Below, one piece after another: positions 16,595 through 18,862 of a stretch of DNA of 64,000 nt; the first letter of the stretch is position 1, and every line of letters starts with the position of its first letter. The stretch lies in the NCBI RefSeq assembly GCF_055900595.2, contig NZ_CM148325.1, one strand, 5' to 3'. The notes under the pieces are model-generated. The model did not search any database. It was not told the origin of the DNA and was given only the letters and a program-made list of their open reading frames with translations. The position numbers were made by a program, and so were the translations under genes.

Positions 16595-17917
16595 AATAAA
16601 TATCAGGCAGTTATTATTGGTTTTGGCAAGGCTGGAAAAACATTAGCCGTCACGCTGGCAAAAGCAGGTTGGCGTGTGGCTCTCATCGAACAATCAAATG
16701 CAATGTATGGCGGGACCTGTATTAATATCGGCTGTATCCCAACCAAAACATTGGTTCATGACGCACAGCAGCACACAGACCTTGTCCGTGCCATACAGCG
16801 TAAAGATGAAGTGGTTAATTTTTTACGTAATAAGAATTTTCATAATCTTGCGGATATGCCCAATATCGACGTGATCGACGGCCAGGCGGAGTATATCAAT
16901 AATCATAGCCTGCGTGTTCATCGGCCTGAGGGAAATCTGGAGATTCATGGCGAGAAAATTTTTATTAATACCGGTGCACAAACCGTGGTTCCGCCAATTC
17001 CTGGAATTACCACCACGCCTGGTGTATATGACAGCACCGGATTACTTAATCTAAAAGAATTGCCTGGGCATTTAGGTATTTTGGGCGGCGGATATATTGG
17101 CGTTGAGTTCGCCTCTATGTTCGCTAATTTTGGCAGCAAAGTAACCATTTTAGAGGCAGCTTCGCTGTTTTTGCCTCGGGAAGATCGGGATATTGCTGAT
17201 AATATCGCGACGATTTTACGCGATCAGGGCGTCGATATAATCCTCAATGCCCATGTGGAGCGAATCAGTCACCATGAAAATCAAGTGCAAGTGCATAGCG
17301 AGCACGCCCAACTGGCGGTGGATGCACTGTTAATAGCTTCCGGTCGTCAACCGGCTACCGCTTCGTTACATCCAGAAAATGCAGGTATCGCAGTAAACGA
17401 GCGCGGGGCAATTGTCGTTGACAAGCAATTACATACCACCGCAGACAATATTTGGGCGATGGGAGATGTTACCGGCGGGCTGCAATTTACTTACATTTCA
17501 CTGGATGATTACCGCATTGTGCGTGATGAGTTGCTGGGAGAAGGCAAACGTAGTACTGATGATCGGAAAAATGTGCCTTATTCCGTATTTATGACACCAC
17601 CCCTGTCCAGGGTTGGTATGACAGAAGAACAAGCCAGAGAGAGTGGTGCTGATATTCAGGTGGTGACATTGCCTGTAGCTGCAATTCCGCGCGCCAGAGT
17701 GATGAACGATACCCGTGGGGTATTAAAAGCGATTGTTGATAATAAAACCCAACGTATATTAGGGGCATCACTGCTGTGTGTTGACTCCCACGAGATGATT
17801 AATATAGTGAAAATGGTGATGGATGCCGGGCTGCCTTATAGCATATTACGCGATCAGATATTTACTCATCCGTCGATGAGCGAATCACTCAATGATCTAT
17901 TTTCATTAGTCAAATAA
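16595..17917 (+). CDS. rclA: Pyridine nucleotide-disulfide oxidoreductase RclA
   Basis: Start MNKYQAVIIGFGKAGKTLAV (441 aa); FAD fold and redox-active CINIGC motif. Confidence 0.9.
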   Translation, partial: NKYQAVIIGFGKAGKTLAVTLAKAGWRVALIEQSNAMYGGTCINIGCIPTKTLVHDAQQHTDLVRAIQRKDEVVNFLRNKNFHNLADMPNIDVIDGQAEYINNHSLRVHRPEGNLEIHGEKIFINTGAQTVVPPIPGITTTPGVYDSTGLLNLKELPGHLGILGGGYIGVEFASMFANFGSKVTILEAASLFLPREDRDIADNIATILRDQGVDIILNAHVERISHHENQVQVHSEHAQLAVDALLIASGRQPATASLHPENAGIAVNERGAIVVDKQLHTTADNIWAMGDVTGGLQFTYISLDDYRIVRDELLGEGKRSTDDRKNVPYSVFMTPPLSRVGMTEEQARESGADIQVVTLPVAAIPRARVMNDTRGVLKAIVDNKTQRILGASLLCVDSHEMINIVKMVMDAGLPYSILRDQIFTHPSMSESLNDLFSLVK

Positions 17918-17926
17918 ACTCAAAAT

Positions 17927-17960
17927 CAGACGCCAGGACAAATATTCTGGCGTCTCAGAG
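17927..17960. terminator. Putative bidirectional hairpin terminator between convergent rclA and the aldo-keto reductase gene
   Basis: Inverted repeat agacgccag / ctggcgtct (9-bp stem) with A/T-rich flanks, 10 bp after the rclA stop. Confidence 0.45.
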
Positions 17961-17977
17961 AAAATAAGTGATTAATA

Positions 17978-18862
17978 TCAATCATGTATTTTTACAGCAA
18001 GACAACCACGAACAAACTCAGGATTAAAATGTTTTACTGACTCCCCAACATAACCCAAATCAAGCGAACTAATTTGTGCCATTTCTTTCTCTGTCAGTGA
18101 GAAATCCCAGATAGCAAAATTTTCTTCGATACGCTGTTGATGTGTCGATTTCGGAATAACGACCACTCCCCGTTGAATATTCCAACGCAGAATGACTTGA
18201 GAAATCGATTTTTGATGGGCATCTGCAATACTCTGAAGCAGATTATTTTCAAAGGGTTTATGTCGTCCACCACCTAACGGAGCCCATGCTTCAGGCTGCA
18301 CGTTATAATACTTCATGGTTGCCAGCGCCTCTGGTTGGGCAAAATAGGGATGCAACTCGACCTGGTTGACCATCGGTTTAACTCTTACCGTTTCACAAAA
18401 GTTCGCCAGAACATGAGGGTAGAAATTGGAAACCCCAATCGCTTTTAATTTGCCCTCTTCATAGGCATCTTCGAGTGCACGCCACGCACTGAAATAATCG
18501 CGCATGGCCTGGTGCAATAAAAAGAGATCGAAGTATTCCAGTCCCGATTTTTTTAATGATTCTTCAATACCTGCTGCTGCAATATCCTGATTCAACATAT
18601 CCTGCACCCACAATTTAGACGTTATAAATAACTCTTCTCGGGTACATAAACCTTCAGATATGGCTTCACGAACGGCTTCACCGACGGCATCTTCATTACC
18701 GTATACCGCTGCAGTGTCGATGAGTCGATAACCCGTGCGGATAGCATTCAACACTGACTGTTTGCACACGTCTTTATCGGTAACCTGAAAAACACCAAAT
18801 CCCATCATCGGCATTTTCAGATTGTTACTTAATACGGAAAATTCCACTGTCAGTCCCTCCAT
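17978..18862 (-). CDS. Aldo-keto reductase (start uncertain; may be internal at MPMMGFGV, 18814)
   Basis: AKR motifs ([27 protein letters not shown]...RIEEN); paralogous to the AKR at 24891. Confidence 0.8.
   Translation of the reverse strand: MEGLTVEFSVLSNNLKMPMMGFGVFQVTDKDVCKQSVLNAIRTGYRLIDTAAVYGNEDAVGEAVREAISEGLCTREELFITSKLWVQDMLNQDIAAAGIEESLKKSGLEYFDLFLLHQAMRDYFSAWRALEDAYEEGKLKAIGVSNFYPHVLANFCETVRVKPMVNQVELHPYFAQPEALATMKYYNVQPEAWAPLGGGRHKPFENNLLQSIADAHQKSISQVILRWNIQRGVVVIPKSTHQQRIEENFAIWDFSLTEKEMAQISSLDLGYVGESVKHFNPEFVRGCLAVKIHD

Follow-up and report, generated by a model that had tools for sequence, protein, structure and literature searches.

The window analysed here is a stretch of 64,000 nucleotides of contig NZ_CM148325.1 (NCBI RefSeq assembly GCF_055900595.2), and it holds a version of the Escherichia coli reactive-chlorine resistance locus, rclR / rclABC, in which rclB and rclC are missing. 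The regulator gene rclR (15512..16366, minus strand) is intact and encodes an AraC-family activator of 284 aa, specific for reactive chlorine, in which Cys21 and Cys89 are present; it scores 555 bits on the NCBIfam RclR equivalog (cutoff 400). Divergent from it lies rclA (16592..17917, plus strand), also intact, whose product of 441 aa is a flavoprotein oxidoreductase acting as a reductase of hypothiocyanous acid (HOSCN) and Cu(II). It differs from K-12 RclA by five substitutions, keeps the CXXXXC redox pair (Cys43-Cys48) and scores 867 bits on the NCBIfam RclA equivalog (cutoff 740). We use the annotated rclA start, 16592, from which the start given in a first-pass annotation of the sequence (16595) is off by 3 nt; the longest open reading frame (ORF) begins at 16565, and the TAA stop occupies 17915-17917. 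The next gene, as that annotation had reported, is a convergent aldo-keto reductase (AKR) gene (17978..18847, minus strand; longest-ORF start at 18862). It is intact, and its product is DkgA-like, albeit under the equivalog cutoff (233 bits vs 425).

The rclA and AKR stop codons lie just 60 bp apart, so no ORF can fit between them, in agreement with the earlier statement that none of at least 60 aa is found there. Translated searches (tblastn) of the whole 64-kb window, using queries from an intact strain, gave a best E-value of 2.2 for RclB (a DUF1471 periplasmic protein) and of 0.056, over 31 residues, for RclC (a DUF417 inner-membrane protein), while blastn with the rclBC DNA retrieved no match in the window. 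Of a complete Rcl system (rclR plus rclABC), the 64-kb window thus contains RclR and RclA, and neither RclB nor RclC was detected in it. The absence of both genes, first suggested from the ORFs alone, is borne out by the translated search of the full window, and the K-12 gene order given there, rclR / rclA-rclB-rclC, proved correct on comparison with K-12. A synteny comparison showed that the usual E. coli order is rclR / rclA-rclB-rclC / AKR / Rob-like regulator / fdeC. The AKR gene is not an unusual neighbour: it normally adjoins rclC in most E. coli, and K-12 is the exception, being atypical downstream, where only an AKR remnant (ykgQ) is left and eaeH is disrupted by IS3. The proposed different make-up of the locus holds insofar as rclBC are missing; in all other respects, this is a standard E. 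coli locus minus one segment of 1,049 bp.

The end-points of that segment could be placed by comparison with the intact loci of strains 2014C-3075, EC42405 and K-12, which share the arrangement rclA-hairpin-rclB-rclC-hairpin-AKR. The window aligns with these loci up to 43-46 nt past the rclA stop and again from 13-16 nt beyond the AKR stop, and the two alignments flanking the resulting gap of 1,049-1,051 bp overlap at the junction. Of the intact relatives found, EC42405 is the closest, with 98.5% identity across 10 kb and 99.2% in the left flank. The top direct repeat in its interval is an imperfect repeat of 20 nt, 80% identical, whose copies, TGGCGTCTCAGAGAAAAGAA and TGTCGTCTCAGGTAAAATAA, are spaced 1,049 bp apart and lie exactly at both end-points of the deletion. 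The longest exact runs shared by the two copies measure only 8 nt and 4 nt. The junction alignments and the comparison with EC42405 identify in the window a single hybrid copy of this repeat, TGGCGTCTCAGAGAAAATAA (17948..17967, plus strand), left by the deletion, with the crossover falling within the shared AAAA at 17961-17964. When the 1,049 bp were removed in silico from EC42405, the product matched window positions 17900-18030 at 131 of 131 nucleotides. A 30-mer that would serve to screen for the junction is CTGGCGTCTCAGAGAAAATAAGTGATTAAT.

The signature of a deletion is complete, comprising repeats at both ends in a relative, one hybrid copy, and a deleted length equal to the repeat spacing. 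The deletion took place between the two imperfect 20-nt direct repeats, leaving the hybrid copy behind; as read from the sequence, this pattern is characteristic of illegitimate recombination by strand slippage or short homology. The segment removed comprises the 3' part of the rclA-rclB spacer, rclB, rclC and a large G+C-rich hairpin, shown in the intact locus L002, that separates rclC from the AKR gene and resembles a bidirectional terminator. Among the comparisons made here, no evidence against the deletion was found.

We searched 5,426 complete E. coli genomes with a junction probe of 121 nt. A one-piece match was retrieved in six of them, each at 100% identity: Z0117EC0005 (GCF_023658425.1; from a dog, South Korea), AST85 (human), E200086, E400634, E500002 and E600003. 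The last four are published as Escherichia cryptic clade I, ST485, OND:H45, and are eatA-positive child isolates (Mali, Kenya, India and Bangladesh; PMC13064198). Over 10 kb, all six carriers match the window at 99.9% identity, and the next best genome does so at 98.5%. Since the same junction is carried by six independent complete assemblies, an assembly artefact is ruled out. In turn, the rclBC segment was present over at least 80% of its length in 5,021 of the 5,426 genomes (~93%), and rclBC also follow rclA in Salmonella enterica (three subspecies) and six Citrobacter species. A scan of genome contigs with E. coli RclA, from which the best 80 loci were kept and 147 relatives confirmed, included no Escherichia or Shigella among the 80; polarity was, therefore, judged from Salmonella and Citrobacter as outgroups and from the counts within the E. 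coli population. The choice of the best 80 was evidently not made by identity alone. Given that rclBC are found in 5,021 E. coli genomes, Salmonella and Citrobacter, and that the junction is confined to six genomes, the rclBC-less state is, on this distribution, a derived loss in one lineage, and the deletion itself is an ordinary lineage-specific polymorphism.

The same distribution bears on two other accounts of the missing genes. Were the absence of rclBC ancestral in the lineage of the window, the pair would have been inserted between rclA and the AKR gene in other E. coli; the imperfect direct repeat flanking rclBC in intact genomes could in principle be the scar of such an insertion, and several other Enterobacterales have rclR-rclA without rclBC. 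We give this account almost no credence, as rclBC lie directly past rclA in Salmonella, Citrobacter and most complete E. coli genomes, the junction is limited to six near-identical genomes nested within E. coli, and the nearest relative, EC42405, is intact. Moreover, the window keeps a block upstream of rclB (described below) that elsewhere is found only together with rclB. It is also very unlikely that the genes were relocated rather than lost, with rclBC, or a substitute such as the RclC homologue RcrB, residing elsewhere in the genome. RcrB exists in uropathogenic E. coli (PMC12096828), and rcl genes do occur on some plasmid-labelled records (the rclA region matches in 154 places, rclBC in 75); however, no RclB or RclC homologue lies within the 64-kb window, and the deletion mechanism is one of simple loss, which leaves nothing to move. 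We regard one explanation as very probable, namely that the window carries the usual E. coli rcl locus from which 1,049 bp were deleted, and the readings of its lineage, its expected phenotype and its hairpin belong to that same account.

Regarding the plasmid-labelled records themselves, NZ_CP075464.1, a plasmid of 102 kb, carries rclA alone (98.4% identity), and a 'plasmid' record of S. enterica carries full-length rclA as detected by tblastn. Several others labelled 'plasmid', 1-4.9 Mb long, are plainly chromosomal.

Outside Escherichia, the best 80 RclA loci include rclR-rclA pairs that lack rclBC, from two genomes each of Enterobacter, Proteus and Citrobacter. A retained BC-less R-A pair, by loss or absence of its partners, is a recurrent natural state. 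In Citrobacter youngae (locus L010, 5327-5530), a truncated rclB consisting of only its final ~51 codons lies directly past the rclA terminator. Loss of rclBC beside a kept rclR-rclA thus recurs in other Enterobacterales (loci L010, L011, L016-L018, L020 and L059), apparently independently.

Between rclA and the junction, the window contains a palindrome, AGACGCCAGGACAAATATTCTGGCGTCT (17928..17955, plus strand), a native element of the rclA-rclB spacer that was kept as a relic and that we interpret below as the putative upstream box of an rclBC promoter. Its arms and loop, AGACGCCAGGA-CAAATA-TTCTGGCGTCT, form an 11-bp stem starting 10 nt after the rclA stop. A 66-nt segment containing the hairpin folds at -18.3 kcal/mol (z = -5.3), a stability reached by 0 of 200 shuffles. 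The first-pass annotation had taken this hairpin for a terminator. Its position, exactly 10 nt past the stop, is correct, and it has the G+C-rich stem-loop of an intrinsic terminator; however, no U run was found 3' of the stem on the plus strand, where CAGAGAAAA / CAGAGAAAATAAG stands instead, and a terminator scan of 16300-19100 returned 0 sites. The label of terminator was dropped on these two grounds. Nor is the hairpin a mark of a rearranged locus, since all the intact E. coli examined have the same structure in their rclA-rclB spacer, with one A/G difference that keeps the pairing; its presence is, therefore, uninformative regarding the deletion.

In Salmonella and Citrobacter, a canonical stem-plus-T-run terminator is located directly past rclA (AGCCCTGTTAATCAGGGCTTTTTTTT in Salmonella and GCCCCACnnGTGTGGGGCTTTTTT in Citrobacter); next come a block with homology to the E. 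coli hairpin and, after it, rclB. In an alignment of ten spacer sequences, the columns that never vary are ACA..T.T.CTGGCGT and a TAnTnT hexamer placed 30 nt after it. Citrobacter does not conserve the palindrome's left arm and forms no hairpin there, while the right arm and loop are invariant, indicating that the block is not conserved for its hairpin potential. A conserved RNA structure was considered and rejected, given the loss of the left arm in Citrobacter and the lack of compensatory pairs. The hairpin is a normal spacer element, neither created by the deletion nor a canonical terminator.

What is conserved in this block resembles the rclA promoter. The latter (16491..16553, plus strand) consists of a box, AGACGATAAGACAAAATATCAAGCGTT (16491-16517), a 30-nt spacer and a -10 hexamer, TATAGT (16548-16553). 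We interpret the box as a putative RclR site. DNA binding by RclR is reportedly described by Parker et al. 2013. In an alignment of 18 Enterobacterales sequences upstream of rclA, a conserved box, tAGACGATnnGACAnnAAnnnnGCGCGTTATGGATA, a fixed spacer and a TATAnT -10 hexamer were observed. The pattern A[G/T]ACG-N4-rACA-N9-GCGTY-N30-TAnnnT fits both the rclA promoter and the region upstream of rclB in E. coli, Salmonella and Citrobacter, with a spacer that is constant in length and fully different in sequence between genera. Its core, GCGTY-N30-TAnnnT, is present upstream of rclB in all ten intact loci and, for the three genera, in every rclA promoter. The distance from GCGT to the start codon is also similar: 79-81 nt for rclA and 76-82 nt for rclB in nine of ten intact loci, the remaining one being Citrobacter sp. 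wls619, with 133 nt. An nhmmer model built from rclA promoters only was run on both strands of the window and 18 loci; its best non-self matches were to the hairpin element, on the correct strand, and weaker matches fell in the orthologous Citrobacter spacers. The block is absent 3' of rclA in seven loci without an intact rclB. A gapped local alignment of the E. coli rclA promoter with the rclA-rclB spacer scored 18, compared to a null of 11.8 +/- 2.1, with 9 of 500 shuffles reaching 18.

These results suggest that 'rclABC' may not be one operon and that the block after rclA could be the box of a second RclR-type promoter, dedicated to rclBC. In MG1655 (NC_000913.3, minus strand), where the rclA-rclB spacer measures 108 bp, the putative -10 hexamer occupies 318,608-318,603, and a transcript from it would be predicted to begin near 318,596, some 7 nt further downstream; in Salmonella, given the terminator past rclA, such a start would be predicted to supply all rclBC RNA. 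Two published observations fit a separate rclBC promoter. In genomic SELEX, the sigma-70 holoenzyme bound the ykgC-ykgI (rclA-rclB) spacer in vitro, and the authors list a 'ykgIB' operon (PMC3946193). Additionally, rclB and rclC RNA in K-12 is approximately tenfold below rclA RNA, a gap that the authors call unexplained (PMC12096828).

Several points weigh against such a promoter. The gapped local alignment that was significant in E. coli was not so in Salmonella or Citrobacter, leaving the ungapped, in-register comparison as the sole one consistent across genera. The E-values of the rclA-promoter model on the element are only about 1. The rclA-promoter consensus, allowing at most three mismatches, has 5 sites in the window, compared to 3.06 expected; as it is not enriched, box similarity is not used here as stand-alone evidence. 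The left part of the box (AGACGAT) matches poorly upstream of rclB. Furthermore, read-through from rclA into rclBC probably also occurs in E. coli, since no canonical terminator lies between rclA and rclB in this species. Weighing both sides, we put the chances that a separate RclR-type promoter drives rclBC, with the hairpin block as its putative activator box, at roughly even.

The tenfold RNA gap would also be compatible with a hairpin acting, as its sole role and in intact strains too, as a functional terminator, attenuator or 3'-end stabiliser of the rclA transcript, and the stability of the fold just past the stop favours such a role; the strain with the deletion would then have a clean monocistronic rclA unit. 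We consider this unlikely, although it retains some weight. The stem is followed on the plus strand by CAGAGAAAA and not by a U run, and the terminator scan found 0 sites there. In Salmonella and Citrobacter, a genuine terminator already stands upstream of the homologous block. The palindrome's left arm has diverged in Citrobacter without any compensating substitution, in contrast to the invariant right arm and loop, and the block is missing from loci that have rclA but not rclB.

If the block is instead the box of an rclBC promoter, the deletion would have kept the box and removed its native spacer and -10 hexamer, so that the box, now an orphan, would point at the AKR gene's 3' end. At the native +35 offset, the window has TGTATT, and the nearest TAnnnT, TATTTT, is 2 nt out of register. 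With its native spacer and -10 replaced, the orphan box is probably weak or silent. A separate promoter, if real, would explain the tenfold gap between rclA and rclBC RNA, and ST485 would be left with an oxidant-responsive orphan box 23 bp away from where the AKR gene ends; combined with transcripts reading through from the strongly induced rclA promoter, this box could cause antisense transcription into the AKR gene in response to oxidants. Regardless of the box, rclA and the AKR gene now converge with only a hairpin lacking a U tract between them, the native bidirectional terminator, which would have stopped antisense transcripts of this kind, having been deleted, and we speculate that oxidant-induced rclA transcription may run antisense into the AKR gene.

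The physiological consequences can be anticipated from published K-12 knockouts. Mutants lacking rclB or rclC are HOSCN-sensitive, each single deletion resembling the triple mutant at high doses (PMC12096828), and they are also sensitive to hypochlorous acid (HOCl) (PMC7527725). As the RclR sensor and the RclA reductase are kept, oxidant-induced RclA should still be made. By analogy with these knockouts, a strain without periplasmic RclB and membrane RclC would be expected to withstand the immune oxidants HOSCN and HOCl less well than intact strains do. A natural loss of rclBC with RclR and RclA retained offers a natural experiment on whether RclB and RclC matter in the gut, in a carrier lineage that is globally spread, diarrhoea-associated and found in humans and animals. 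The promoter evidence, in turn, provides a testable explanation for an RNA discrepancy flagged by the field. The analysis thus yields a naturally rclBC-deleted lineage, along with a lead on how rclBC are transcribed.

Beyond the AKR gene, the window continues with a gene for a Rob-like AraC/XylS regulator, a ykgA homologue (19095..19952, plus strand), which is divergent from the AKR gene and whose product scores 196 bits on the RobA model, below the cutoff of 380, and with the fdeC adhesin gene (20073-24326, minus strand). Two more AKR genes lie in tandem beside two LysR regulators just past fdeC (24900-27800). One of them is 47% identical to the AKR adjacent to rclA, making three AKR paralogues inside 9 kb. 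In the annotation of Z0117EC0005, three neighbouring genes are decayed: a truncated hypothetical gene at the ykgH position (window 11576-11830), an alpha/beta hydrolase gene with an internal stop (~29950-30900) and a frameshifted ykgL (~32640-32870). Coordinates converted from the same annotation place a small island at window 51085-57786, adjoining tRNA-Thr (about 57711-57786, beside proA). The island consists of an integrase remnant with a frameshift, two small ORFs, a gene for a hypothetical protein of 1,069 aa and a toxin-antitoxin pair of the AbiEi/AbiEii type, and a second, partial ykgR comes after it; K-12 has a much larger prophage-like element at the same site.

The closest known system is the rclR / rclABC locus of K-12 (Parker et al. 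2013; PMC7527725; PMC12096828), which occupies the same chromosomal site as that of the window, between ykgE and fdeC/eaeH. Both loci have divergent rclR and rclA, the same conserved rclA promoter and the functional cysteines. They differ in that rclB and rclC are missing from the window through the 1,049-bp deletion, whereas its AKR gene is intact and that of K-12 is reduced to the ykgQ remnant. As for the deletion, the window resembles the RecA-independent, slipped-strand deletions between short direct repeats known from bacterial chromosomes in its end-point repeats, its hybrid copy and the equality of deleted length and repeat spacing, and shows nothing unusual among them.

In gene content, the window is comparable to the rclR-rclA-only loci of Enterobacter sp. 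Ag1 and Cy-643, Proteus penneri, P. columbae, Citrobacter werkmanii and Citrobacter sp. MGH106. In all of them, the regulator and the reductase occur without their periplasmic and membrane partners, showing that the RclR-RclA pair persists alone. However, those loci are species-level states with no relic of the rclB-upstream block, whereas the window shows a recent within-species deletion in which both the block and a hybrid repeat remain. The stand-alone RclA/MerA-type hypothiocyanite reductases of Firmicutes, Bacteroidetes and other groups (PMC7527725; NCBIfam NF041853) likewise function as reductases without RclB or RclC. Among the best 80 RclA loci, homologues with 43-52% identity and no rclBC nearby were found in Staphylococcus, Enterococcus, Ligilactobacillus (Lactobacillaceae), Leptotrichia and Campylobacter. 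These organisms are also without RclR and never had rclBC, whereas the window retains RclR and lost the partners of RclA secondarily.

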